From Candidatus Aldehydirespirator sp. (GTDB taxonomy: Bacteria > Actinomycetota > Acidimicrobiia > Acidimicrobiales > Aldehydirespiratoraceae): a stretch of DNA of 64,000 nt. A program made the translations under genes and the position numbers. The stretch covers positions 4,120,756 through 4,184,755 of the forward strand of contig OZ252146.1 of assembly GCA_965248735.1 (NCBI GenBank), read 5' to 3'. Below the pieces are notes generated by a model. The model had not been told where the DNA came from. It saw only the letters and a list, made by a program, of their open reading frames with translations, and made no database searches. Below are positions 46,627-64,000 of this stretch, piece after piece (the first letter of the stretch is position 1; every line of letters begins with the position of its first letter).

Positions 46627-48645
46627 ATGAGCGGCGCGGCGATCAAGAACCACGCCGGGTTCATCTGGTCGGTGGCGGACCTGCTGCGGGGCGTGTACAA
46701 GCAGTCCGAGTACGGCCGGGTGATCCTGCCGTTGACAGTGCTGCGCCGGCTGGACTGCGTGCTGGAGCCGACCAAGGCCGAGGTGCTGGAGACCATGGCG
46801 GACCTGCCCGAGACGCTGCGCAACCGCGAGCCGCTGCTGCAGCAGGTGGCCGGGCAGCCGTTCGTGAACATGTCCCGGCATACGTTCCACACGCTGCTGG
46901 GCGATCCCAACAACGTGGCCGGGAACCTGCGCAACTACATCGCTGGGTTCTCGGAGTCGGCGCGCGACATCGTGGACAAGTTCAACTTCGACGTGCAGAT
47001 CGACCGTCTCGACGACCACAACCTGCTGTATCTGGTGGTGTCGAAGTTCGCGGAGATCGACTTGAGCCCCGCCGCGGTGTCAAACCTGGAGATGGGGTAC
47101 CTGTACGAGGAGCTGATCCGGAAGTTCTCGGAGCTGTCCAATGAGACCGCGGGCGAGCATTTCACGCCCCGCGAGGTGATCCGGCTGATGGTGAATCTGC
47201 TGTTCGCGGACGATGACGAGTTGCTGACTCGGCCGGGCGTGCTGAAGACGCTGCTGGATCCGGCGTGCGGCACCGGCGGGATGCTGTCGGTGGCCGAGGA
47301 CTACCTGCGCGAGCTCAACCCGCAGGCCCGGCTGCTGGTGTTCGGCCAGGAGGTGAACGCCGAGACGTACGCCACCTGCCGCGCCGACATGCTGATCAAG
47401 GGCGCCGACGCCGACAACATCGGCTTCGGCAACAGCTTCGACGACGACCGCCACGAGGGCCGGCGCTTCGACTACCTGCTGGCCAACCCGCCGTTCGGGG
47501 TGGAGTGGAAGATGGTGGCCGACACGATCCGCGACGAGCACGCCGCCCAGGGCTTCGCGGGCCGTTTCGGGGCGGGGCTGCCCCGCATCAACGACGGCAG
47601 CTTCCTGTTCCTGCAGCACATGATCTCCAAGATGAGGCGCCCCGAGGAGGGCGGCGCCCGGCTGGCGATCGTGTTCAACGGATCGCCGCTGTTCACCGGC
47701 GCGGCCGGCTCGGGCGAGTCGGAGATCCGCCGCTGGATCATCGAGAGCGACATGCTCGAAGCGGTCGTCGCCCTGCCCGACCAGCTGTTCTACAACACCG
47801 GCATCTCCACCTACTTCTGGGTGGTCACCAACCGCAAGGCGCCCCGCCGCCGGGGCAGGGTGCAGCTCATCGACGCCCGCGACAGCTTCACCAAGATGCG
47901 CAAGAGCCTCGGCCAGAAGCGCAAAGAGATCTCCACCGAGCAGATTGACGACATCACCCGCCTCTACGGCGCCTTCGAGGAGAGCCCCCGGGTCAAGATC
48001 TTCCCCAACGAGTCGTTCGGGTTCCTGCGCATCACCGTGGAGAGGCCCCTGCAACTGCGCTGGGAGATCACCGACGACACCCTCGCCGCCGTCGAGGCCG
48101 ACAAGAAGGTCGCCAAGCTCGATCATCCGCAGCGCGACGCCCTGCTCGAAGCACTGGGACGTTGCCGAGGCAGCCAGTACGCCACCGACAAGTCAGCCAA
48201 GGCAGCAGTGCAGGAAGCACTCACCTCGACCGACGCCGACACACCCGCGGCCCTCATCAAAGCCGTGACCGACGCCCTAGCCGTGCGAGACCCAGAGGCC
48301 CCCGTCATCACCGACCGGGCCGGCAACCCCAAACCCGACCCCGACCTCCGCGACAACGAGAACGTCCCGCTGCCCCAAATGAGCGTCGCCTACGAGCCCG
48401 ACCCCACCGCCCGCCTCGAAACCATCGAGTACCGCACAGCCGTCGACGACTACGTCGAGACCGAAGTACACCCCTACGTCCCCGACGCCTGGCCCGACCC
48501 CGACAAGACCAAGATCGGCTACGAGATCCCCCTAACCCGCCACTTCTACACCTACACCCCACCCCGCCCCCTCCACGAAATCGACGCCGAAATCAAGGCG
48601 CTAGAGACCGAGATACAAGAACTCTTGGAACAGTTAACTCAATGA
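46627..48645 (+). CDS. hsdM: Type I R-M system methyltransferase subunit
   Basis: GEHFTPREVI, LDPACGTGG, ANPPF (m6A), FYNTGI motifs. Confidence 0.95.
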   Translation: MSGAAIKNHAGFIWSVADLLRGVYKQSEYGRVILPLTVLRRLDCVLEPTKAEVLETMADLPETLRNREPLLQQVAGQPFVNMSRHTFHTLLGDPNNVAGNLRNYIAGFSESARDIVDKFNFDVQIDRLDDHNLLYLVVSKFAEIDLSPAAVSNLEMGYLYEELIRKFSELSNETAGEHFTPREVIRLMVNLLFADDDELLTRPGVLKTLLDPACGTGGMLSVAEDYLRELNPQARLLVFGQEVNAETYATCRADMLIKGADADNIGFGNSFDDDRHEGRRFDYLLANPPFGVEWKMVADTIRDEHAAQGFAGRFGAGLPRINDGSFLFLQHMISKMRRPEEGGARLAIVFNGSPLFTGAAGSGESEIRRWIIESDMLEAVVALPDQLFYNTGISTYFWVVTNRKAPRRRGRVQLIDARDSFTKMRKSLGQKRKEISTEQIDDITRLYGAFEESPRVKIFPNESFGFLRITVERPLQLRWEITDDTLAAVEADKKVAKLDHPQRDALLEALGRCRGSQYATDKSAKAAVQEALTSTDADTPAALIKAVTDALAVRDPEAPVITDRAGNPKPDPDLRDNENVPLPQMSVAYEPDPTARLETIEYRTAVDDYVETEVHPYVPDAWPDPDKTKIGYEIPLTRHFYTYTPPRPLHEIDAEIKALETEIQELLEQLTQ

Positions 48646-49898
48646 GCGCTTGGAGATGGACGCGCCTAAAGCACCTGGCATCGGGAGCCATCAGAAATGG
48701 CGTCGGTGAACCGGGAGCCTTCGACAACCCTGAATGGCCTAGATACGTTCGAACGACTGATATTGCTGGACCACGCCAACTCAGGGAGGATACATTTGCT
48801 TCACTTCCTCCCAACATTGCAGCTAGGGCTGATCTTCAGCGTGGAGATCTTGTTATGACCGCAGCCGGAGCGACAATCGGTAAGTCGCTGCTCTACGATT
48901 CGGAAGCGCCTGCCTGTTATGCTGGCTATCTCGTACGATTCCGGCCCCGCGCCGATGTTGATATTCGGTTTGTCTCCTACTGGACCGAGTCAAGGCCGTA
49001 TTGGGAGCAACTCGACGCTGGGCGAGTCGTTTCAACCATAGAGAACTTCAACGCATCAAAGTACCGCAATCTGAGGATTCGTGTTCCAGCTACTAACGAA
49101 CAGCGTGCGATAGCTGACTATCTAGATGCCGAAACCGCTCGCATCGACGCCCTCATCTCTAAGAAACGCAGAATGCTTGAACTCTTGGCAGAACGCCGTC
49201 GTGCCTTCGCTATCGCCTTCACCACTGGGGAAGGATGCGGGGATGACTGGACTCCTGGCCCATATTGGCTTAGCCCTGTCCCTCGAACCTGGCAGCCATA
49301 TAAGATTGCTTGGCATAAACGAACGGCGAGTGGGACCACGCCTGACAGTGGTAACTCGTCGTACTATGACGACACTATGGGAGTTCCTTGGGTTACAACA
49401 TCTGAATTACGTGAAACAACGATTCGTGACGCTGCTCGTCGAGTCACGAGCGCTGCCCTCCAGCGATACTCCGCGCTCAAGGTACTACCTGTTGGGGCAG
49501 TACTGATTGCGATGTATGGCGCGACAGTGGGTCGCTTAGGAGTACTGGGGACATCAGCAACGACGAACCAAGCGTGTTGCGCAGTGTATGACGCTGGCGC
49601 CCTTGATCAGCGTTTCCTCTATTGGTGGTTCTGGGCAAACAGAGAGCATCTCATCTCGATGGCATACGGCGCTGGTCAACCGAATATCAGCCAAGATCTG
49701 ATTCGTAGCCTACGCATTCCGGCTCCCGAAATAGGGGAGCAGCGAGAAATCGCGGATCGTATCGAACACGAGGCAGCTCGGATTGAGCGAATTGCGTCTA
49801 AGTTGACCCGTCTTATCGACCTCCTCACCGAGCGGCGACAAACGTTGATTACGGCTGTCTTGACCAGCGAGATGGCGGTGCCTGGGGTGACAGCCTGA
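48642..49898 (+). CDS. hsdS: Type I R-M system specificity subunit
   Basis: ATGA overlap with hsdM; two TRDs each followed by a conserved helix (EQRAIADYLD, EQREIADRIE). Confidence 0.93.
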   Translation: MSAWRWTRLKHLASGAIRNGVGEPGAFDNPEWPRYVRTTDIAGPRQLREDTFASLPPNIAARADLQRGDLVMTAAGATIGKSLLYDSEAPACYAGYLVRFRPRADVDIRFVSYWTESRPYWEQLDAGRVVSTIENFNASKYRNLRIRVPATNEQRAIADYLDAETARIDALISKKRRMLELLAERRRAFAIAFTTGEGCGDDWTPGPYWLSPVPRTWQPYKIAWHKRTASGTTPDSGNSSYYDDTMGVPWVTTSELRETTIRDAARRVTSAALQRYSALKVLPVGAVLIAMYGATVGRLGVLGTSATTNQACCAVYDAGALDQRFLYWWFWANREHLISMAYGAGQPNISQDLIRSLRIPAPEIGEQREIADRIEHEAARIERIASKLTRLIDLLTERRQTLITAVLTSEMAVPGVTA

Positions 49899-49933
49899 AC
49901 ATTCTCTCCGAGGCGATGTTCGAGGCGCATATT
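49895..49933 (+). pseudogene. Remnant hsdR 5' end / left 26-bp direct repeat
   Basis: 49908-49933 CCGAGGCGATGTTCGAGGCGCATATT matches 62183-62208 at 24/26. CTG at 49895 overlaps the hsdS stop and is in frame, at the same 15-nt distance to GAG as the real hsdR GTG. Confidence 0.75.
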
Positions 49934-50031: not shown

Positions 50032-53000
50032 CTATTCTGATTCTGCTTCTAAGTCGACAAGTTCGATGAGTTGTTCAACTTCGCAGAGGTGAGTCCCGGC
50101 ATCCCACTCCGATGCGAGGCACTGCGCCACCGATATCCATGCTGATTCGTTGGTGTCTTCTCCAGTCAGGAGTGGTCTGACACACTGTGCTGCGAGACTT
50201 GGTTCTGGACTTGTTACATCCAGTTCCGCCTGTACCCTGGCACAAAAGTAGCCGATGCCGCTCAGCAGTGCATCGGCTACCCGGTCGCCCGACATACTAG
50301 TGAGTTGCTCTCCCGCTGTTTCTAAATTGGAAGAGAATGCTTGGATGGCGTCTTGGATCCTATCATGCGCTCGTTGCTCCTCAGGCAGGTCGTTCACACC
50401 CGACAGTCCTTGCAGCGCGAAGACAGCTTGGTTGAATATGCCGGTGAGTCTGCCTGCGTGTGCCTCAGGTAGTTTGTCCAACCCGCTGGGGTTAGGAGTA
50501 GGCCAAAGATCATTGATCAGGCTGAAGGCCATTCCCGGTACCGGTCGGGTGTTGCGAAGCGGCACGAATAGAAGTGTCTCGTCGGCTCTCTGGTCTTGTC
50601 GGAGAGCAACCATTAGCTTGTGGACCGCTTCATGCCACTCAACGAGCGAATCGAGCGTTACGGATACGCGGTATTCCCTTACGGCGGTCCAGCCGCGGTC
50701 GTAGTCGAATACTCTTGCCTGGAGTCCTGTGTTATAGCAGGTAGACTGGATCTGCTTGAGGCGCTTCTGCTGTCTGCGCTCATTGGTGGCGCGGCATATT
50801 CTTGCGCCTCGTTGCAACGCGCTGGAGGGTTTACCTGATCTAGCGGCCTGCCGGATCTTGCCGATATCGGCATCGCCATTGGCTAGTTCACTGACTACAT
50901 CGCGGAGGTCGTCTAGCGTGGACCTGAGTTCTTCAAGGCTGGGAGGGTAGCCGTCGAGCCCGATGAGTCGCCACTGCTCCCTGAGTGTCCCGGCGAGATT
51001 CTTGCCGATGATCGTGTCGGAGATGTACGCCGTCAGAGCCCGATAGCCATCGGGGCCTTGCAGCCGGAGGAATGCACTGTCGGTGATGTTGAGGATCGTG
51101 GCGGAGAGATTGTCCGTTAGATCTGGGGTTCGTCGCTCCAAGATGGCGGTGTCGCCGATCTGTGTCGTGAGGGCCGGTCGTAGCGCCCGTGCGCATTCGT
51201 GGAGCAATCTGCGTTGCTGGCCTAAGCCGGGACCGGGTGACGATCGCCCGGTTAGAAGCGCAGCGCCCGCACGTTGGACCAGATCGTTTGCTTGGCCAAG
51301 CAGTGGAAGTGCTTCCGTTAGCCGGACCGTGTCCGCTTCACCTACCAGAGCGACAGCAGCCCGGACGCGCGCCTGTGCCCAGGCGACACTGGATGCTGCC
51401 GGGGCGTATTGCCGCTGGAGCCGACTAACGCCGGCGGGGTCGCCGCCTATAGCCGGTTCTAGGTTGCCCGGCCAGAGGGCCTTTATGTCGACGGAAGCGA
51501 TCCGGGGAAGGCACCAGAGAAGGGTCCGCCCCAAGCTGTGGGCCTGCTCCTGCATGTCTCCCTGCACATCGTCTGAGACGTGGAGGAATCGGGCAAACCC
51601 GACCGGGCCATCCTCACCTTCCCGGATCCCTATCTGGGTAATCCACGGGTTGCCGACACGGATGCGCTGGATCAGAGCCTGCTCCCCGCCGACGCCCTCC
51701 ACGAGCGCTTGTGCCACCCGCGGATCGGCGTCGCGCGCCGCGGACATGCAGTCCCTGAGGTCTTCGAGCGGCGCTTCGCGCAGCGCCAACGCGAGCGGTG
51801 AGTCCTGATCGAAGGTGTTCTCTACGGCTCTCGCAAGGTCCGGGCCCGTGTTAGCGAGCGTGGCGAGCAGCAGCGTTGCTCTGCCGGTGTCACTCGCTGA
51901 GGTGAGGAGTTGGGCGATGGCCTCTCGTCCGGCAGCCTCGAGGAGTCCGTCGCGGGAGTCTCGTCCGGGAACGGCGACAAGGGCCCTATGGGCTGTCTGG
52001 AGATCATCTGTGAGGAAATCCGGAGGCTCGCCGCCTTGTACTGCCATAGCGAACAGCGTTGGACGGTTCGTGGGTGGAACATCGTGCTGCTCGGCGACCT
52101 CGTTCCAGGCTCTTGCCAGTTCTTGGAAGTCGGCGAGGCGGAGACCTTGAAGGCACGCAGCGACGCGTTCCAACTCCAGGTCGCCGCTGCCGGCTTGGTC
52201 GGCGACGATGCCACGAGCTTCGGGGTTGTCTTCGAGCATCGCCGCGATGAACCTGTGGAGCTGCGCTGTAGGCACGAGGGGAATCGCCTTCTGGATGGTC
52301 ACGTCGATGGCAGGCGGCGGGAGCGCGTGGACCGCTTGGCAAATGGCGGTGGATCTGAGCCGGTGCAGCCCTCCCATCTGACCGTCCCGCTCAACAACGA
52401 GATGCTCAGTGTCAAGCCGGTCCAAGGCTCTTCGCAGATCGTGATCGGACAGCCCGCAGGCCCGTGCCACATTCGCTGTTGAGACGGTGGCCGACCAGCG
52501 ATCGGCCACCGAGACGAGGGCCAGGACCTTGAGCTCTTGGTCTCGGTTCTCGCGGATGCGCCGCCGGACCTGATCGTCGATCACGTCGCTGAGCCGCTTC
52601 CCTCTCGTAAGGAGGTGTGTGAACTCGAGTGTAAGTCCGCGCGACTGTTCGAAGGCTTCACGCCAGTGGGCGACAGTGGTCGCACCGCTGCCGAAGAGTT
52701 CTCCGTGGATCGTCTCAGCGGCGCGCTCGTCTAGCTGTACGGCGACAGTGGCACATTCCGCCAGGTCGCCGAGGGCCGCCAAATCCTCGTGTCTCGCTGT
52801 CGCCACGACGAACATGCCCGGTACGGCTGCCGCCTCGGCCCGCAGACGTGCCCAGCCCGTGAAGTCGCCCGTGCCAGCAGAATCGACCAGGAATCCGATC
52901 GGGACGCTAGGCGAGGCACAGTAGGCGTGAGCGAGGCGGACGATGGCTGGCACGTCTTCGTCGGCGAGCCGTCGGACACGGAACCAGGCGACGCCCCGAA

Positions 53001-54072
53001 GCTCCGGTTCTCGTGGGATGGTCCACAGGACGGCGCTCTTGCCCACGCCCGACGGGCCGGTAATCACTACAGCGGACCGCTCGCCCAACCCAGACAGAAC
53101 CCTCTCAATGACATCGCCCCGGCGTACGACTAGCCCTGATTCGACGTGGAAGGGTTGAGTGGCAGCGCCCTCATAGAACCGTTCACGGCTGTTGGTGGCC
53201 TCATGGACGCCGTACTCCAGCGGCTCGCAGATGCCCAGATGGATAGCGGCCTCAAGCGACTCAACGTTGACCATTCCCGCGATCCTTGTGATCTCGCTCG
53301 CGAGCTGAGTCCGATCGAGACGTCGCCTTTGCTCGTAGATGGGAGTGTCGTTGTCGTCCGCCGCGCTGGCGAGGAAGACACGGAGCTGGTCGGCGACAAG
53401 GCGCAGGGCCGCCGGGGGCAACTCCAACTGTTCGCTCAGGGCAGCAACGGTCTCGGCTGTGATGTCGTCCCACGAGATGCCTGCGACCACGGTGGACGAC
53501 AGCAGCCGACCGACATCCATCCCAAGCTCACTGCCCTTTTCCTTCAGGCTGTTGAGAAGTTGTGAGCCGTCCACCAGGGACCCTGCCAAGGTCCTATCGA
53601 GATCATGCGACGGGGTCTCCCCCTTTACGCCCCTTTCGAACACGACCACGAGCCTCGACCCCGGCTCGTCCCGACCGGCATGCCGCGCCCACGCGTCCAT
53701 GATGTGCCCGGCCGCCTGGGCTGCTGAGAACAGGCCTAGACGCTCCACCTTCGACTTGACCTGGACATGCCAATGCGTCCCGCCCTCCAGCAACACGTCC
53801 TCCGAACCCTCGGGCACGACTAGGACATTCGGAATGGTCCCCGCTGCCACCTTCGCTGCGAGCCAAGTCACGGCAGCGTCTTGGAAATGGATGCCCCGAC
53901 CGGTCCGCGCCCCATGCCGCTCGCCCTTCCAACGAAGGGCAGGCCCGCTGCCGTCGCTGTCGTCCGTTAGGCCCTCCCCGCCTGGTCCAGCTTCCCGGCC
54001 GCCAGCTCCACGACCTGGAGGGAGCGGCCCGCTGGCCGACTTCCTCCGCTTCTTCCTGCGCTTGCCTGACAC
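50032..54072 (-). CDS. Large PD-(D/E)xK nuclease + STAND P-loop NTPase protein (Avs-like architecture)
   Basis: GRGIHFQD...PEGSEDV...VQVKSK (Cap4/DUF4297-like nuclease); ITGPSGVGKS Walker A; FLVD Walker B; wHTH-like segment; long helical C-terminus. Confidence 0.7.
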   Translation of the reverse strand: MSGKRRKKRRKSASGPLPPGRGAGGREAGPGGEGLTDDSDGSGPALRWKGERHGARTGRGIHFQDAAVTWLAAKVAAGTIPNVLVVPEGSEDVLLEGGTHWHVQVKSKVERLGLFSAAQAAGHIMDAWARHAGRDEPGSRLVVVFERGVKGETPSHDLDRTLAGSLVDGSQLLNSLKEKGSELGMDVGRLLSSTVVAGISWDDITAETVAALSEQLELPPAALRLVADQLRVFLASAADDNDTPIYEQRRRLDRTQLASEITRIAGMVNVESLEAAIHLGICEPLEYGVHEATNSRERFYEGAATQPFHVESGLVVRRGDVIERVLSGLGERSAVVITGPSGVGKSAVLWTIPREPELRGVAWFRVRRLADEDVPAIVRLAHAYCASPSVPIGFLVDSAGTGDFTGWARLRAEAAAVPGMFVVATARHEDLAALGDLAECATVAVQLDERAAETIHGELFGSGATTVAHWREAFEQSRGLTLEFTHLLTRGKRLSDVIDDQVRRRIRENRDQELKVLALVSVADRWSATVSTANVARACGLSDHDLRRALDRLDTEHLVVERDGQMGGLHRLRSTAICQAVHALPPPAIDVTIQKAIPLVPTAQLHRFIAAMLEDNPEARGIVADQAGSGDLELERVAACLQGLRLADFQELARAWNEVAEQHDVPPTNRPTLFAMAVQGGEPPDFLTDDLQTAHRALVAVPGRDSRDGLLEAAGREAIAQLLTSASDTGRATLLLATLANTGPDLARAVENTFDQDSPLALALREAPLEDLRDCMSAARDADPRVAQALVEGVGGEQALIQRIRVGNPWITQIGIREGEDGPVGFARFLHVSDDVQGDMQEQAHSLGRTLLWCLPRIASVDIKALWPGNLEPAIGGDPAGVSRLQRQYAPAASSVAWAQARVRAAVALVGEADTVRLTEALPLLGQANDLVQRAGAALLTGRSSPGPGLGQQRRLLHECARALRPALTTQIGDTAILERRTPDLTDNLSATILNITDSAFLRLQGPDGYRALTAYISDTIIGKNLAGTLREQWRLIGLDGYPPSLEELRSTLDDLRDVVSELANGDADIGKIRQAARSGKPSSALQRGARICRATNERRQQKRLKQIQSTCYNTGLQARVFDYDRGWTAVREYRVSVTLDSLVEWHEAVHKLMVALRQDQRADETLLFVPLRNTRPVPGMAFSLINDLWPTPNPSGLDKLPEAHAGRLTGIFNQAVFALQGLSGVNDLPEEQRAHDRIQDAIQAFSSNLETAGEQLTSMSGDRVADALLSGIGYFCARVQAELDVTSPEPSLAAQCVRPLLTGEDTNESAWISVAQCLASEWDAGTHLCEVEQLIELVDLEAESE

Positions 54073-54257: not shown

Positions 54258-56282
54258 ATGAGATTGCATCAGGCGAGGGTACGAAACTACCGCAGCATCC
54301 GCGACACCGGTTGGTTCAGCGTGGAGGACGCCAAGACGATCCTGGTCGGGCCAAACGAGGCTGGCAAGACAGCGTTGCTTGAAGCGCTCCGACAGATCAA
54401 CACCACCGATGAGGCGCGAGGATTCGACCCTTTGCGGGACTACCCGCGCAAGATCTACAACGACGACATCCAGTCCGGCCGCTGCGATCCCAGCGACATC
54501 CCCGTCGCCGCTGCCAGGTTCAAGCCTGAGCCCGATGATCTCGATGGGCTTTCTGAGGGCTTCACGAAAGCGACCTATCGCTGCACCCGATATCTCGACA
54601 ACAGTTTCAAGCACAAGATCGAGGGCGGGCCACAGCCCGTCGTCTTTGACGACCGGGTGCGCAAGGATCTGCTACGCATGGCGTCCCACGTCGACAAACA
54701 AACCGCCGACGAGCGGGACGCCGACGAGCAACCTCCCAGCGGCGATCTCGCAGAGATCATCGAGGAGTGGCAGGTAGGCACAACGAAGATTGACGGCGAC
54801 CGCGCAACCGAACTGCAGGAATGGCTCGACTCAATCGGCGTCAAGATAGACGAGAACAACACCACCGAGGAGAACCGCCACAACCGGCTCCTCGAATACA
54901 CACGCATCCCCCAGCAGCGCGCCACGGCTCTTGGTGCGTTCAAGGCCCGGCTACCGGTGTTCGTCTACTACAGCAACTACTTCCGAGTACGCCCCAACAT
55001 CCACCTACGCCGATTCGCGGACCGCACCGAGCATCACCCCCTCGATGACGAGCGTTACGACTACGGGAACCTGTGCCTGCTCAAGCTGCTCGGCTTCACC
55101 GCTCGTCAACTCGCGAACCTCGGGGACGCACCTGACCCCGGGGACGATGCGGACGCGTTCGAGAGCTATCGCGGCCAGCTCGACGAGCGCCGCTTCCAAC
55201 TCAACGCTGCCAGCCTCAGCCTCACTAAGCAGATCAACTCAGCCTGGAACCCCGATCATTCCCGCGCCGAGGCCGACCGGGTGCTAATCCAAGCGGACGG
55301 GCAGTATCTCAAGGTCGTGGTCCAAGATGAACTCGGGGTCGAGGTTGAGTTCGACCAGCGTTCCGCTGGGTTCCAGTGGCTGGTGTCGTTCTTCGTGGTG
55401 TTCTTCGCCGAAGCCCAAGGTGCCCACGCCAACGCCATCCTGCTGCTCGACGAGCCTGGTCTGAGCCTCCACGGTCTCAAGCAGCGCGAGTTCCGTCAGA
55501 CAGTCTCGCAGCTAGCCGAAACGAACCAGACCCTGTACACGACCCACTCGCCGTTTCTGGTCGGCCCTGACGAACTCGATCTGGTCCGGGTCGTGGAGAT
55601 GACCGATCGCGACACCGGGACTGAAGTCCACACCGGCGTCACAGCCGGCGACCCGGCCGCTCTACTGCCTCTGCAGGAGGCGCTCGGTTATGACCTCGCC
55701 CAGAGCCTTTTCGCCCAGCGGCGCAATCTGGTCCTCGAAGGACTGACCGACTACTGGTACTTCGAAGCCACGGCCCAACTGCTACGCGACGCACGCATCG
55801 CTGACCTGAACGACAAGATCGCCTTGATGCCAGCCGAGGGCGCCGGGAAGGTCGTGTACTTCGCCACCATTCTCTACGCCAACAGACTCAAGGTCGCTGC
55901 CCTGCTCGACTCCGACAACGCCGGCGACAACGCTGCCAAGAAGGACACTCTGATTCACGCTCTCGGCTACAACAACATCCTCCGCACCGCCGACGTCTGC
56001 CCCGGCTCGATCACCAAGCCTGAGATCGAAGACCTCCTGCGCGACACCCTCGTCGTCGTCGCCAAGACCGAACTCGGCTGGGACATCACCGAGGTGGCTG
56101 CCAGCCAACCTCGCCGGCCGATCCTCCAGATCTTCAAGCAACAAGTATCTGGCTTTCACAAGTACCCACTTGCGAAGGCATACCTTCGCTGGACACGCGA
56201 CCACACCGCCGACGACCTCACCAGCGGCGAACGGGATGCGTGGAGCGAGCTCATCACCCGGGTCAACAAGGCTCTCAAGTGA
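54258..56282 (+). CDS. OLD-family ATP-dependent nuclease (ABC ATPase + TOPRIM)
   Basis: VRNYRSI, GPNEAGKT, RSAGFQW, LLLDEP, TTHSP; TOPRIM VLEGLTD and LLDSD. Confidence 0.85.
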   Translation: MRLHQARVRNYRSIRDTGWFSVEDAKTILVGPNEAGKTALLEALRQINTTDEARGFDPLRDYPRKIYNDDIQSGRCDPSDIPVAAARFKPEPDDLDGLSEGFTKATYRCTRYLDNSFKHKIEGGPQPVVFDDRVRKDLLRMASHVDKQTADERDADEQPPSGDLAEIIEEWQVGTTKIDGDRATELQEWLDSIGVKIDENNTTEENRHNRLLEYTRIPQQRATALGAFKARLPVFVYYSNYFRVRPNIHLRRFADRTEHHPLDDERYDYGNLCLLKLLGFTARQLANLGDAPDPGDDADAFESYRGQLDERRFQLNAASLSLTKQINSAWNPDHSRAEADRVLIQADGQYLKVVVQDELGVEVEFDQRSAGFQWLVSFFVVFFAEAQGAHANAILLLDEPGLSLHGLKQREFRQTVSQLAETNQTLYTTHSPFLVGPDELDLVRVVEMTDRDTGTEVHTGVTAGDPAALLPLQEALGYDLAQSLFAQRRNLVLEGLTDYWYFEATAQLLRDARIADLNDKIALMPAEGAGKVVYFATILYANRLKVAALLDSDNAGDNAAKKDTLIHALGYNNILRTADVCPGSITKPEIEDLLRDTLVVVAKTELGWDITEVAASQPRRPILQIFKQQVSGFHKYPLAKAYLRWTRDHTADDLTSGERDAWSELITRVNKALK

Positions 56283-56460: not shown

Positions 56461-56943
56461 TCACGCTACTGCTAGGACGGCGGCGATGAGGATGCATGTG
56501 GCGACGAAGCTGATGAAGGCCTGAACGGTGACCCAGAGCCTCACTCGGCGCACGATCGGCTCGTGGCGCTCGTAGTGGTCGCTGAGGGTCTCGACCAAGT
56601 GGTCCAGCAGCGCCGGATAGCCGTTGTGGCGATTGGGGAAACTGCGCACCAGTTGGTCGATCTTGGGGCCTTCGTGCCACGCCACGGGCGCGCTGTGAAC
56701 GGCGACCCAGCACAGGCCGTTGGCGACAGCGATCACCAGCGCTATAACACCGGCGGTACTGGCTTCGAGGCTGCTCGCCTCGACGGCGGGGGACGCCAGC
56801 AGGGCGGTCACGAGAGCACCGATGGTGAGGAACCCGCCGGCAAGCACCGCTGAGCGCTGCTGGTGCGCCGCGAGACGGGCATCCTGCTTGCGGCGTAACT
56901 CGGCCGCCTGGCGCAGGATTTCCTCTCGGGTCTCGATGCTCAC
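56461..56943 (-). CDS. Hypothetical membrane protein (about 3 TM; Pycsar/SLATT-effector-like topology)
   Basis: Two N-terminal hydrophobic helices, a soluble loop, and a C-terminal hydrophobic helix. Confidence 0.6.
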   Translation of the reverse strand: MSIETREEILRQAAELRRKQDARLAAHQQRSAVLAGGFLTIGALVTALLASPAVEASSLEASTAGVIALVIAVANGLCWVAVHSAPVAWHEGPKIDQLVRSFPNRHNGYPALLDHLVETLSDHYERHEPIVRRVRLWVTVQAFISFVATCILIAAVLAVA

Positions 56944-57123: not shown

Positions 57124-58272
57124 TCACATGACTTCCAGCCGCTCGGCCATGCCGTTGAACGTCGCGAGCTTCTTCAACCCGAGCATCTGGAATGCATCGG
57201 CATAGAGCGTTTGGCCCTCGAGGGTGCTGACGATGACGGACCGGGCGAACCGCTTGCTGACTCGTGCCGGCTGGGTGTTGTAGAAGTCGCCGCCGCCACC
57301 ACCCGCGCCGATCAAATCCATGACGCGTCTGAACTCGGTGCTGTACGCCCGCCGGTAGGCGTCCCACGGGAGATATCCAGCCTCGTGCACCCGGCGAAGC
57401 ACCACGAGCGTGCTCGACTTGAATCGGCGCGCCAGGCGATCGAGTTCGTCCGTGAGGTCTGCACGGGCGTTGAAGTCCGATTGCAGCGCCTCAAGCGGAA
57501 CCAGCACCTCGGCGGCGACTCGGTTGCACCAGCGCTCGACCTCGTGAGTGGCCTGAACGCCTAGATCGGCGTCGGACAGGGCGCTCTCCCCGAGCCAGAT
57601 GTGGGCCAGCTCGTGCGCCAGTGTGAAGATCTGCGCGGCCTTCGTGTCGGCGCCGTTCACGAAGACGAGCGGTGCCAGAGGATCGGTGAGCGCGAACCCT
57701 CTGAACTCGGCGGGGTTGAGTTTGCGGCGGGTGTTGCTTCCCACCACGCCGCTGACCATCACAAGCACACCGCTGTCCTCGGCCTGGTCGCGCAGGTAGC
57801 CGAACGCCTCGGACCAATTCGATCCCCTTTGCTCAATCGAGAACGACATCGCGGCTGTCACTGCCGGGGCCGCCTCGTCGACTGGCGTGGCCGCCGAGAG
57901 CGAACCAACGTAGGGAACCGGGTCTAGTCCGATCCCGCGGGCGTAGTCGCGGTACCAGTCCTGTCGCTGTTGGCACTGGTAGATCGTGTCGAGGAGGTCG
58001 GGACTCGGACGCCTGACGCCTCTATCGCCGACCGTGCGGAGGTCGGGGATGGGAACTTCGTCGTCAGGCGGTGCAGGCAGGAAGAAGTAGCCCACGGGCG
58101 TTCGGGTCGCCCTCGCGAACCCTTCGAGCTGCTTCAACGTGGGCGAGTGCTCGCCGCTCTCCCACTGCTGGAGCTTGGGGAACTTGTCAGCGAGCTCGTC
58201 CGCGCCGAGGCCCGACCGCTCCGCAGCCCACGCGTAGAGCGGCGCGGCCACGTCAACGCGGACAGCCACCAT
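57124..58272 (-). CDS. XRE-HTH + ImmA/IrrE metallopeptidase
   Basis: N-terminal HTH (LQQWESGEHSPTLKQLEGFA); FTLAHELAH (HExxH); EVERWCNRVAAEVL. Confidence 0.9.
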   Translation of the reverse strand: MVAVRVDVAAPLYAWAAERSGLGADELADKFPKLQQWESGEHSPTLKQLEGFARATRTPVGYFFLPAPPDDEVPIPDLRTVGDRGVRRPSPDLLDTIYQCQQRQDWYRDYARGIGLDPVPYVGSLSAATPVDEAAPAVTAAMSFSIEQRGSNWSEAFGYLRDQAEDSGVLVMVSGVVGSNTRRKLNPAEFRGFALTDPLAPLVFVNGADTKAAQIFTLAHELAHIWLGESALSDADLGVQATHEVERWCNRVAAEVLVPLEALQSDFNARADLTDELDRLARRFKSSTLVVLRRVHEAGYLPWDAYRRAYSTEFRRVMDLIGAGGGGGDFYNTQPARVSKRFARSVIVSTLEGQTLYADAFQMLGLKKLATFNGMAERLEVM

Positions 58273-59310: not shown

Positions 59311-59373
59311 TCGGCTAACGGCGGTGGAACGACCCACTCCCGTCGCTTGGGCACGGTGCTCAGCCGGGCGGGG
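59311..59373. repeat. Repeat R2 copy a (fossil of the antitoxin-stop/toxin-start junction at 60804-60866)
   Basis: 57/63 identical by manual alignment. Confidence 0.85.
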
Positions 59374-59422: not shown

Positions 59423-59842
59423 CTAGCGCTCTTCGGCGGTCGGGTCTGCAGTCCTGGAGCCAACGAGAAGCTGGACGGGCTCGGCGTCGGGGAATGTCAC
59501 GATGAGCTGGAGTTCGCCGCCGGTTGCTCGGATGAACGAGCGAAGCGTCGACAGGAGCATGTTGCTGCGGTGCTCCAGCCTGGACACCTCCGACTGGTCC
59601 ATCTCCAACAGTTCCGCAATCGTCGCCTGCGTCAGCTCTCGTGCCTTACGGACATGCGCGAGCGTTGTCTGACGCTCGTTGATCTCGGCCAGGACCGCCT
59701 CCATGCGTTCTCGCGCCCGGGAGTCGGCCTTCACCTCGTCATAGAAGGCGTCGGGTGTGATCTTGTGCTGCCACGCGTCAGGAGGGACCTCGCCAATCGA
59801 GGCCTCATCTGCGGGTAGGTGTCTGGGGTGTGCTGCTTCCAT
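59423..59842 (-). CDS. XRE-family HTH antitoxin (start uncertain)
   Basis: RKARELTQATIAELLEMDQSEVSRLE...LSTLRSFIRATGGEL; the listed ATG lies inside repeat R1. Confidence 0.8.
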   Translation of the reverse strand: MEAAHPRHLPADEASIGEVPPDAWQHKITPDAFYDEVKADSRARERMEAVLAEINERQTTLAHVRKARELTQATIAELLEMDQSEVSRLEHRSNMLLSTLRSFIRATGGELQLIVTFPDAEPVQLLVGSRTADPTAEER

Positions 59843-59846
59843 GCCT
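59766..59846. repeat. Repeat R1 copy a (about 80 bp)
   Basis: 69/81 identical to 61349-61428. Confidence 0.85.
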
Positions 59847-59916
59847 GTTGTGCTTCGCCTTTCGTGTTTCGCCTCTTGTGCTTCGCCTTGTCGTGTTGCG
59901 CCTCTTGTGTTTCGGC
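59846..59916. repeat. Five imperfect 14-15 bp tandem repeats in a strand-biased spacer
   Basis: Minus-strand units GCCGAAACACAAGA, GGCGCAACACGACAA, GGCGAAGCACAAGA, GGCGAAACACGAAA, GGCGAAGCACAACA. Confidence 0.8.
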
Positions 59917-60023
59917 GTCTTATGGTTTGACGTTCTCGTCTGGGCTTCTGGTATTGGCGTCTTGTGTGTTTCGGCTTGGGTTGCTGGTGTTGGTTGTTGC
60001 CTCCCTGTAGTCGGCTATCGATC

Positions 60024-60503: not shown

Positions 60504-60847
60504 CTACTCCGTCGCCTTCGGGTGGCCTGTGTGCGCTTCGGTCACCCAAACAGTCTTGGTGACGTCATCTATGCAGTACCAGATCCGTCCGCCTGCCGTG
60601 ATCTCGTACTGCCACTGCTCCATCTCCACCCCGTTCAGCGAGCGCCGTCCTAGCGAGCCCTTCAACGGATGCTGGCGGTCCCCACGCCGACGCCGGTCGC
60701 TCGTGATCACTTCCCATGCGGTCCGAGCGTTGCCCCGTGAGGTGGCGCAGAGCTGCTCCCATCCCGGGCCGCGTCGTTGGTCGCGAAGCGGAAGTCCCAG
60801 CCTTCGGCTGACGGCGGCGGAGCAACCCGCTCCCGTCGCTTGGGCAC
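60504..60847 (-). pseudogene. RelE-like toxin with a -1 frameshift
   Basis: VPKRRERVAPPP...FATNDAAR in one frame and GWEQLC...QWQYEITAGGRIWYCID in another; a G is missing in CGGG at 60763-60766; span 344 nt = 3n+2. Confidence 0.75.
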
Positions 60848-60866
60848 GGTCCTCAGCCGGGCGGGG
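60804..60866. repeat. Repeat R2 copy b
   Basis: Matches 59311-59373. Confidence 0.85.
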
Positions 60867-61348: not shown

Positions 61349-61428
61349 TGCTGCCACCCGTGAGGGTGCACCTCGCCAAGCGAGGCCTCGTCTGCGGGTA
61401 GCTGTCGGGGGTGTGGCGCTTCCTGCCT
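61349..61428. repeat. Repeat R1 copy b
   Basis: Matches 59766-59846. Confidence 0.85.
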
Positions 61429-61993: not shown

Positions 61994-62169
61994 TGACGTG
62001 TGCTGGGACGGTGGCATGCTGGCAGTGTCGCTGTAGGGGCAACGGACGACCTCGGCTCGGTTGCGGGAAGAGAACCGGGCGACAGCCTCCTGCCTCGGCG
62101 CGGATCATGGCTTGGGAGGCGTGGCTTTAGGATGGGTTGGACATTGGGGCCGTAGAGGAGGGTGGCGGC

Positions 62170-64000
62170 GTGAGTTCTGTCACCGAGGCGGCGTTCGAGG
62201 CGCATATTTCTGGCTGGCTGGTCGAGCACGGCGGGTATCAGCGCGTGAAGATCGGCAATGTCGGGGACGGGCCGCGGGACTTCGACGCTAAGGCGGGCGT
62301 CGACACGGCCGACCTGTTCGAGTTCATCGGTGCGACTCAGGGGCCCGAGTGGGAGCGACTCGTGGACTCGGCCTATGGCGGCGATCCGAACCGGGCGCAG
62401 TCCGGGTTCGTGCAGCGGCTGGCTGCGGAGCTGGACAGGCGGGGCACGGTGGATGTGCTGCGCCACGGTGTCGTCGACCGCAACATCACGATCCGGCTGG
62501 CGTTCTTCAAGCCCGCCCATGGGCTGACGCCCGAGCTTGCCGCCCGCTACGAGGCCAACGTGCTGTCGGTGACCCGGCAGCTGCCCTTCGATCCGTCCGG
62601 CGGCCGGACTGTCGATCTAGGACTGTTCGTGAACGGGGTGCCGGTGGCGACCGCCGAACTGAAGAACCCGCTGACGGGCCAGAGCGTCGAGAACGCCGTC
62701 GCCCAGTACCGAGCCGACCGTCCGCACAACAACCGGACTCTGGGCCGGGTGGGCATGGTGCACTTCGCTGTCGATCCGTCCTCGGTGATGATGACCACTC
62801 GCCTGGCCGGTGCCCGCACCCGGTTCCTGCCGTTCAACCGGGGCTGCGATCTCGGTGCGGGCAACCCCCCGAATCCTGACGGGCATCGCACGGCGTACTT
62901 GTGGGAGCAGGTGTGGAGCCGCGACGCCTGGATGGACATCCTCGGACGCTTCGTTCATGTGGAGAAGCCGTCGAAGGGATCGCGGGCCCGCCCAGAAGTG
63001 ATCTTCCCAAGGTTCCACCAATGGGACGCCGTGCGGCGCCTGGAGGCCGACGCCAAAGAGCGCGGAGCGGGCCGCAGCTACCTGGTGCAGCACTCCGCGG
63101 GGTCGGGCAAGTCGAACTCGATCGCCTGGCTGGCGCACCGGCTGTCGTCGCTGCACTCCGCCGACGACGCCAAGGTGTTCGACAAGGTGGTGGTCATCAC
63201 CGATCGGGTCGTGCTCGACCGACAGCTTCAGGACACCATCAGCCAGTTCGAGCACGCCGTCGGGGTGGTGCAGCGCATCGACGAGTCCTCCGCTCAGCTC
63301 GCTGAGGCGCTGACCGGAGAGCAGGCCCGCATCATCGTGACCACGCTGCAGAAGTTCCCGTTCATCTTCGACAAGATCGGGTCGCTGCCGGAGCGCGACT
63401 ACGCGGTGATCGTCGACGAGGCCCACTCTTCACAGACCGGCGACGCGGCCAAGGAGCTGCGCCGCGCCTTGGGTTCGGCCGAACCCGAGGTTGAGGCCGA
63501 CGGCGATGTGGAGCCGACCGACGCCGAGACGCTGCTGGCCGAGGCGGTGGCCGCCCGAGGACGGCAGCCCAACCTGTCGTTCTTCGCGTTCACCGCCACC
63601 CCCAAGGGCCGAACCCTGGAACTGTTCGGCGAACTCGGCGCCGGCGGCCGCCACGAGCCGTTCCATCTGTATCCGATGCGCCAGGCCATCGAGGAGGGCT
63701 TCATCTGCGATGTGCTGGCCGGCTACGTCACCTACAGCCGGTACTACCACCTGGAGAAGGCGATCCTCGACGACCCCTCCTATGACACCGGCAAGGCCCG
63801 CAGCGCGCTGGCCCGATTCGTGACCCTGCACCCCGACAACCTGGCCCAGAAGGCCGAGATCATCGTCGAGCACTTCCGCACCAAGATCGCCCGACAGGTC
63901 GCCGGGCGGGCCAAGGCGATGGTGGTGTGCTCGTCACGACCCCACGCGGTGCGCATGTGGCGGGCGCTGCGGAGCTACGCCGCCGACCTGGGCTACGACC
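62170..64000 (+). CDS. hsdR: Type I restriction endonuclease subunit R (runs off window)
   Basis: Manual translation from GTG 62170: VDLGLFVNG...ELKNP nuclease, HSAGSGKS, ITDR, IVDEAHSSQ, FTATPK; AGAGGAGG RBS; not in the ORF track. Confidence 0.95.
   Translation, partial: MSSVTEAAFEAHISGWLVEHGGYQRVKIGNVGDGPRDFDAKAGVDTADLFEFIGATQGPEWERLVDSAYGGDPNRAQSGFVQRLAAELDRRGTVDVLRHGVVDRNITIRLAFFKPAHGLTPELAARYEANVLSVTRQLPFDPSGGRTVDLGLFVNGVPVATAELKNPLTGQSVENAVAQYRADRPHNNRTLGRVGMVHFAVDPSSVMMTTRLAGARTRFLPFNRGCDLGAGNPPNPDGHRTAYLWEQVWSRDAWMDILGRFVHVEKPSKGSRARPEVIFPRFHQWDAVRRLEADAKERGAGRSYLVQHSAGSGKSNSIAWLAHRLSSLHSADDAKVFDKVVVITDRVVLDRQLQDTISQFEHAVGVVQRIDESSAQLAEALTGEQARIIVTTLQKFPFIFDKIGSLPERDYAVIVDEAHSSQTGDAAKELRRALGSAEPEVEADGDVEPTDAETLLAEAVAARGRQPNLSFFAFTATPKGRTLELFGELGAGGRHEPFHLYPMRQAIEEGFICDVLAGYVTYSRYYHLEKAILDDPSYDTGKARSALARFVTLHPDNLAQKAEIIVEHFRTKIARQVAGRAKAMVVCSSRPHAVRMWRALRSYAADLGYD
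62183..62208 (+). repeat. Right 26-bp direct repeat (hsdR 5' coding region)
   Basis: CCGAGGCGGCGTTCGAGGCGCATATT. Confidence 0.8.

Follow-up and report, generated by a model that had tools for sequence, protein, structure and literature searches.

A Cap4-type nuclease-STAND protein of Candidatus Aldehydirespirator as a candidate Avs-like antiviral receptor

The 64,000-nt stretch of DNA from Candidatus Aldehydirespirator sp. analyzed here (assembly GCA_965248735.1, contig OZ252146.1, positions 4,120,756 to 4,184,755; hereafter the window) carries on its minus strand a gene of 1,346 codons plus stop (50032..54072), which raises the question of whether its product is an antiviral receptor of the Avs (bacterial NLR-like) kind and, if so, how far it departs from the Avs types already described. 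The original prediction, made from the sequence alone, had proposed a restriction-fold nuclease fused to a STAND NTPase and to a sensor of no recognized family, acting as a single-gene abortive defense. Our analysis indicates that the gene probably encodes a single-polypeptide Avs-like antiviral receptor, in which a trigger would induce oligomerization of a Cap4-type nuclease by analogy with characterized Avs proteins. The gene combines a three-part architecture (Cap4-like nuclease, STAND NTPase, sensor) with intact conserved motifs, single-gene organization, a defense-island context and a patchy distribution. All coordinates below are window positions, and all features of the gene lie on its coding (minus) strand.

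Gene model, nuclease and STAND core

The open reading frame (ORF) at 50032-54072 is uninterrupted over 1,346 codons from a GTG start, with neither a frameshift nor an internal stop in the ORF list and translation, and the motifs listed for it in the original prediction were conserved in 30 to 39 homologues. Codon-by-codon reading from the upstream stop (54138-54136) to residue ∼125 showed one in-frame ATG, GTG or TTG, the GTG at 54072; no obvious ribosome-binding site precedes it. In the protein collection that was searched, the corresponding record is 1,222 amino acids (aa) long and begins at M125, and the nuclease active site is thereby lost (residues 1 to 124, window 53701-54072). Residues 45 to 124, upstream of M125, are strongly conserved among homologues, and because conservation extends beyond the recorded start we consider the 1,346-aa gene model to be right and the shorter record to be mis-started, a mis-call attributable to the GTG start and a low-complexity leader. 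This leader (residues 1 to 44; 53941..54072) is basic, Gly-rich and poorly conserved, with a mean pairwise identity of 0.21 versus 0.41 to 0.55 in the catalytic domains and low predicted local distance difference test (pLDDT) values at the start of the structural model.

The domain that follows (residues 45 to 200; 53473..53940) was assigned as the effector, a PD-(D/E)xK nuclease of the Cap4/DUF4297 type, from profile and Foldseek matches. It carries RG(F/I)HFQ at residues 59 to 64 (RGIHFQ in the window protein), PEGxED at 87 to 92 (PEGSED) and HVQVKS at 102 to 107, giving a predicted active-site motif E88-G-S-E-D92 … Q104-V-K106 (53755..53811). With motif conservation judged over 30 to 39 homologues, E88, G89, D92, K106 and S107 were invariant in alignment A1 (39 sequences) and at least 90% conserved in alignment A4, and Q104 was at least 90% conserved in both. 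A profile built from the nuclease alone matched the Protein Data Bank (PDB) sequences of LmuA (9ux7_C, E = 6 × 10−4) and HamA (8zue_A, E = 1.8 × 10−3), and in these alignments the family and both proteins coincided in the GF.(F/Y)Q helix as well as in the PE..ED and QVK(S) motifs. The whole-protein profile returned only P-loop matches along with insignificant ones to HamA and LmuA, so the domain-only profile was needed to reach the value of 6 × 10−4. Among 30 family members, the PADLOC LmuA model matched 12 (best E = 5.9 × 10−8), the HamA model 6 and Pfam Cap4_nuclease (PF14130) 3 (best E = 4 × 10−4); for PF14130 the window protein gave no match, and one distant member scored 21 bits against a gathering cutoff of 26.2 bits. 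In structural comparisons, the nuclease part of the AlphaFold2 (AF2) model matched Cap4 (6wam, 6vm6), LmuA (9hr5) and HamA (8zue). The predicted fold and the aligned motif thus support a restriction-fold nuclease, as originally proposed, and specifically one of Cap4/DUF4297 type. While it shares helix, motif and fold with Cap4, LmuA and HamA, its partner differs: in CBASS, Cap4 is fused to SAVED, in Lamassu LmuA works with the SMC protein LmuB and in Hachiman HamA with the helicase HamB, whereas the nuclease here is fused to a STAND module, and scans of the adjacent ORFs turned up no gene for an SMC, a helicase or a SAVED/cyclase protein.

A helical linker (residues 201 to 295; 53188..53472), defined by AF2 secondary structure and with a mean pairwise identity of 0.34, connects the nuclease to the STAND core. 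The nucleotide-binding domain (NBD; residues 296 to 470; 52663..53187) contains FYEG at residues 299 to 302, the Walker A motif or P-loop GPSGVGKS (residues 339 to 346; 53035..53058; invariant in the aligned homologues except for V343), Walker B D397 and the sensor-1 arginine R427. Alignments of the NTPase retained GPSGxGKS, D397 and R427-x-E429-D430 (sensor-1 in the context ATAR427xED) without exception. The helical domain (HD) and winged-helix domain (WHD), which were delimited by conserved motifs and model topology (residues 471 to 590; 52303..52662), include a GLPLA-like segment, GLTLEFTHLL, at 479 to 488, in which L480, E483 and H486 are invariant, and a winged helix at ∼532 to 583 with EHL (556 to 558) and GLH570xLRS, in which E556, H557, L558, G568, H570, R573 and S574 are invariant. 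The AF2 model gives this winged helix an H-H-E-E-H topology, and weak Pfam matches were to winged-helix families (Rio2_N, Rrf2). A complete STAND core (NBD-HD-WHD, ∼296 to 590) is therefore present, with P-loop, Walker B, sensor-1 Arg, GLPLA-like motif and WHD His.

Foldseek searches of the PDB with an AF2 model of residues 40 to 640 (built with 48 homologues; pLDDT of 85.1) returned Avs3 with its terminase (8dgc, E = 2.7 × 10−12) and Avs4 with its portal (8dgf, E = 3.6 × 10−8) as the closest solved structures, followed by further matches to EfAvs5, SAMD9, the plant NLR RPP1, MalT, CED-4 and Dark. The proposed STAND NTPase with a winged-helix segment was thus borne out by both its motifs and its model. 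Family assignment of the NTPase was less direct. Pfam on the full window protein yielded only sub-threshold matches to AAA_16, nSTAND1, nSTAND5 and nSTAND6, and NCBIfam yielded nothing meaningful. The most specific family match was Pfam nSTAND5 (PF25199), found in 8 of 30 members (best E = 1.4 × 10−6), and one homologue (P0093) carries a precomputed PF25199 match; all printed scores lay under the 34-bit gathering cutoff (window protein, 14.3 bits; five distant members, 18.1 to 28.9 bits). On these profile scores the NTPase looks like a divergent sister group of nSTAND5 rather than a clear member. A literature search for “nSTAND5” retrieved irrelevant papers only.

Many STAND clades have no role in defense, and the 1,222-aa record, together with a GTG start that has no obvious ribosome-binding site, could be taken as signs of a STAND protein without an immune role (for example a regulator or a housekeeping ATPase) or of a gene decaying after loss of its nuclease. 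We regard this as barely plausible: the nuclease upstream of M125 is conserved across the family with intact catalytic residues, the frame is unbroken, the protein has no DNA-binding output domain and the gene is found consistently in defense islands with a patchy distribution.

The C-terminal sensor and comparison with known Avs proteins

The remainder of the protein (residues 591 to 1346; 50035..52302) is a putative sensor of 756 residues that was modeled with confidence by AF2 (residues 590 to 1346; pLDDT of 90.7; predicted template modeling score [pTM] of 0.84). The model is a mostly helical scaffold with two alpha/beta inserts, arranged as ∼14 helices, an insert at ∼811 to 890, a helical region, a second insert at ∼1116 to 1195 and a helical end. 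Of the original description of this part, its size (∼750 aa) and its lack of a recognized family stand; a purely helical fold does not. Foldseek with the sensor model found nothing significant in the PDB (best E = 0.06, TM-score of about 0.1) or in the viral database BFVD (best E = 0.16). Weak matches to proteins of the importin/HEAT type and to AadA, DncV and pol beta, which have nucleotidyltransferase folds, were at chance level and were dismissed. An internal duplication was likewise rejected at the sequence level, as hhalign comparisons of residues 800 to 1105 with 1106 to 1346, and of each with 591 to 800, gave probabilities of ≤3.6%. Among the folded parts of the protein, this one varies most (pairwise identity of 0.29 to 0.42, compared with 0.55 in the NTPase), as expected for a sensor and as in Avs proteins.

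To place the sensor more broadly, a sensor-only profile (A5) was run against 1.84 billion cluster representatives (clusters at 50% identity), and it retrieved 538 clusters at E ≤ 1 × 10−3, of which 307 were at E ≤ 1 × 10−30. Among the 150 full-length matches listed, the sensor mostly starts at ∼470 to 600 in proteins of ∼1,200 to 1,360 aa, with two longer proteins differing; shorter matches look like contig fragments. Distant family members keep traces of nSTAND5 and Cap4. Because nearly all A5 matches share one architecture, the sensor seems to be tied to the nuclease-STAND chassis and not shuffled among effectors. In another genome of the same genus (G024:C1:3798454-3799422, minus strand), a match to sensor residues 1004 to 1326 only lies inside a 443-aa open frame; it represents a remnant or else a C-terminal piece that stands alone.

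The protein could also be a defense STAND whose sensor responds to something other than a phage protein, such as a structured nucleic acid, a small molecule or nucleotide, or a signal of host integrity. LmuA and HamA, the relatives of the effector, belong to systems that sense the state of DNA. The sensor is not a plain tetratricopeptide repeat (TPR) solenoid, having two alpha/beta inserts, and these gave very weak Foldseek matches to AadA, DncV and pol beta, proteins of the nucleotidyltransferase fold (probability of 0.1 to 0.35, E of about 1). Such matches are insignificant, no conserved acidic or catalytic motif was seen in the inserts, and the triggers identified so far for Avs families are all phage proteins; we therefore consider a non-protein trigger unlikely. 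A related idea, one that we think somewhat doubtful, is that the sensor represents a fold class outside Avs1 to Avs24 and the 684 sensor structural clusters described below. It would then sense what no known Avs detects, either a component of Actinomycetota phages or a non-protein infection cue bound by its two inserts, and the protein would be the first example of a new pattern-recognition specificity, present mostly in Actinomycetota.

The closest known designs are those of SeAvs3 and SeAvs7. Both have a Cap4 nuclease that is activated by tetramerization, and the trigger recognized by SeAvs7 (Cap4-STAND-TPR) is the major capsid protein (bioRxiv 10.64898/2026.01.04.697583). The mechanism of sensor-triggered oligomerization has been solved for SeAvs3 and EcAvs4 (PDB 8dgc, 8dgf). 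The window protein shares with SeAvs3 of Salmonella enterica the order of an N-terminal Cap4-type nuclease, STAND module and large C-terminal sensor in a single gene, and SeAvs3 (8dgc) was the best structural match to residues 40 to 640 at about 14% identity. It differs in length (1,346 aa versus a PDB chain of ∼2,000 residues), in that its nuclease and NTPase half alone matches 8dgc, and in its named hosts, which are mostly Actinomycetota where those of SeAvs3 are Enterobacteria. With SeAvs7 it shares the union of Cap4 nuclease and STAND in one polypeptide; compared by description only, the bilobed TPR sensor of SeAvs7 is all-helical whereas the sensor here has alpha/beta inserts.

By analogy with SeAvs3, EcAvs4 and SeAvs7, the protein would rest in the uninfected cell as an autoinhibited, ADP-bound monomer. 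During infection the ∼750-residue sensor would bind a ligand specific to infection, with a conserved phage protein as the likeliest candidate, and binding would open the NBD-HD-WHD core, allowing ATP binding and oligomerization, probably to a tetramer. Oligomerization would bring together the N-terminal Cap4-type PD-(D/E)xK domains to form an active nuclease, which would degrade double-stranded DNA irrespective of its sequence; phage replication would stop and the cell would be sacrificed (abortive infection). Trigger, oligomeric state, DNA substrate and abortive outcome are all inferred from those systems.

Several observations weigh against an Avs-like receptor of this kind. The 30 family members scanned gave no match to a PADLOC Avs model at E ≤ 0.1, and HMMER with the whole-protein profile did not find Avs3 or Avs4 in the PDB. 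The sensor model showed no resemblance to the sensors of Avs3, Avs4 or Avs5 in Foldseek searches of the PDB, and a phage-protein trigger is for this reason a matter of pure analogy. In Walker B only one acidic residue is conserved (D397, with S, G, A or D after it), so ATP hydrolysis may be weak or absent, and this NTPase may depend on binding its nucleotide and not on hydrolyzing it. A scan for the sigma-70 consensus, which is ill-suited to a high-GC host, found no promoter-like site for the gene. Finally, the evidence drawn on here is confined to sequences, models and gene context. A terminator scan around the gene was uninformative.

As to type, PADLOC returned no match to the window protein at E ≤ 1; the PADLOC-DB v2 models cover the named Avs types 1 to 5. 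In the sensor model search, 8dgc was absent among the 50 PDB matches listed, so the sensor is by this measure not of the Avs3 type. No full-length PADLOC match to a described Avs type was thus obtained, while both the nuclease and the STAND fold were recovered. By the tests made (PADLOC Avs models, HMMER, sensor structure), the protein appears to fall outside every named Avs type. It does agree with Avs in the broad sense of Gao 2022 and Lee 2026 as far as a STAND core, an N-terminal defense-type effector, a large C-terminal sensor (at least 400 aa, usually repeat-helical) and nearby known defense systems are concerned.

Family distribution and the defense island

A word-indexed search identified 96 relatives, all labeled “hypothetical” where named. 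Their hosts include metagenome-assembled genomes (MAGs) of Acidimicrobiia, Candidatus Poriferisodalis, Microbacterium, Leucobacter, Brevibacterium, Streptomyces, Kitasatospora and Cellulomonadaceae; one relative is from a Gemmatimonadota MAG, and named members are mostly Actinomycetota. Full-length homologues share 26 to 81% identity. The closest homologues from cultured hosts include those of Microbacterium testaceum (WP_153008945) and Leucobacter komagatae (WP_141886044) and a Streptomyces copy. Leifsonia joined the list after a scan of species-representative genomes, which also detected a copy with 26% identity in the alphaproteobacterium Pelagivirga sediminicola. Closer to the window, the gene occurs in 4 of 25 species of the genus (in one as a C-terminal fragment) and in 1 of 16 other families of the order.

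In the window, the gene sits between hsdM/hsdS (46627-49898) and hsdR (from 62137) of a type I restriction-modification (R-M) locus, as the first gene of a 12.3-kb island. The island is bracketed by an imperfect 49-nt direct repeat (family D5; 78% identity between copies, spacing of 12,275 nt), whose left copy (49885..49933) lies at the junction between the hsdS stop and the 5′ side of hsdR and whose right copy (62160..62208) lies at the 5′ end of hsdR, the HsdR domains beginning in the ORF from 62137. The GC content of the ∼48- to 62-kb interval is 58 to 65%, compared with about 70% elsewhere. Besides the STAND gene, the island holds an OLD-family gene, a small gene for a predicted membrane protein, an M78/IrrE-like peptidase gene, and helix-turn-helix (HTH) and Gp49/HigB-like genes.

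An 81%-identical homologue on a metagenomic contig (L003, 1-13300) occupies the same hsdS/hsdR site with the same flank (aldehyde dehydrogenase, thiolase), and has DUF7380 and DUF4411 with an M78 peptidase in place of the OLD gene and toxin-antitoxin (TA) array. At this type I R-M locus the junction of hsdS and hsdR is a hotspot for cargo genes, and retention of the STAND gene beside differing neighbors suggests cassette exchange within the island. Other homologue loci adjoin BREX, Abi_2, or AbiEii with transposases; two more (L016 and L017) have DUF1156/DUF499-HEPN, DUF6119 and AbiEii, and a CBASS cyclase with patatin. Defense genes thus adjoin the STAND gene in the window (type I R-M, OLD and TA genes) and at the majority of homologue loci examined, in agreement with the defense island originally proposed; no recognized defense gene was found in the two Streptomyces loci with scanned neighbors (L002, L008). 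No neighbor was common to the homologue loci examined, which upholds the claim of a single-gene system. Patchy distribution together with the absence of a common neighbor is the signature of a mobile single-gene defense.

The OLD-family gene (54258-56282, plus strand) encodes a 674-aa protein with an ABC-type ATPase and a TOPRIM domain, and is bona fide defense-type by its PADLOC matches (Old, E = 2.4 × 10−22, then AriA and GajA). It is divergent from the STAND gene, with only 186 bp between them in the one island, and the two could conceivably form a multigene system with the small predicted membrane protein encoded at 56461-56943. We hold this to be highly improbable, since no OLD/TOPRIM gene occurs near any annotated homologue locus or among the five Pfam-scanned neighbors at L016 and L017, and since DUF7380 stands at the place of OLD beside the 81%-identical homologue in the same hsdS/hsdR site; moreover, OLD nucleases and Avs proteins are each known to act alone. 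As an obligate partner, the OLD nuclease is ruled out by the homologue loci. Scans of ORFs neighboring the OLD gene revealed neither a GajB-like helicase nor an AriB, and the OLD product therefore looks like a stand-alone, class-1-like nuclease. The 160-aa ORF that converges on the OLD gene (56461-56943, minus strand) had no Pfam or PADLOC family match and is probably a membrane protein, given its two to three hydrophobic stretches. The M78/IrrE-like metallopeptidase gene (382 aa; 57124-58272, minus strand) has PADLOC similarity to CapP and RmrA; the M78-peptidase gene of L003 also encodes 382 aa and is followed by the DUF4411 gene.

A second candidate partner was a gene of 346 to 348 aa downstream of some homologues. 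In Streptomyces, a 346-aa protein follows the homologue (L002, 12118-13158; L008, 7280-8320) and is 83% identical between two species; it has Cys-rich N-terminal repeats and no Pfam match, and a DnaQ-like exonuclease motif was suggested by eye. This gene was rejected as a family-wide partner: the Streptomyces copies are unrelated to the equal-sized gene in the Acidimicrobiia-type locus, and it is missing from other lineages. In Pelagivirga sediminicola (L011, 2749-7884 and 1315-2538), the homologue lies directly downstream of genes for a 1,711-aa AAA_16 P-loop protein, possibly a second STAND-like protein, and a HipA kinase toxin.

The TA-rich part of the window island also contains two pairs of direct repeats of 63 to 75 nt and 85 to 90% identity (59311-59373 with 60804-60866, and 59766-59840 with 61349-61423), which bracket different small HTH or toxin-like genes, and a tandem array of a 14- to 15-nt repeat at 59834-59919.

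Novelty and significance

The extent to which this family is new depends on a recent catalogue. Lee, Koonin, Gao et al. (2026) described 589 STAND clades, 198 of them defense-associated, and 684 sensor structural clusters, and Avs numbering now reaches 24 (bioRxiv 10.64898/2026.01.04.697583). Six NCBI accessions of family members and sequence strings from the NTPase had no match in the part of the supplement to that work that was available. The proposal of an unclassified Avs-like sensor is supported: the protein is unclassified by PADLOC and its sensor is unmatched. The novelty claimed for it was overstated, its architecture being that of SeAvs3 and SeAvs7. The Cap4-STAND-sensor design is established in those two proteins and hundreds of defense STAND clades have been catalogued; this is another Avs-like family rather than a new kind of system. 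With design and mechanism both already established, the conceptual advance is modest.

The practical consequence is for annotation. Pfam, NCBIfam and PADLOC v2 miss the family and the protein record drops its nuclease, so a family hidden Markov model would improve the annotation of defense genes in high-GC genomes. To our knowledge, almost no STAND defense has been tested in Actinomycetota. If confirmed, the gene would add an Avs-type receptor family from this phylum (Acidimicrobiia, Microbacteriaceae, Streptomyces), and the trigger of its sensor, once found, would widen the map of phage components recognized by bacterial NLR-like proteins.

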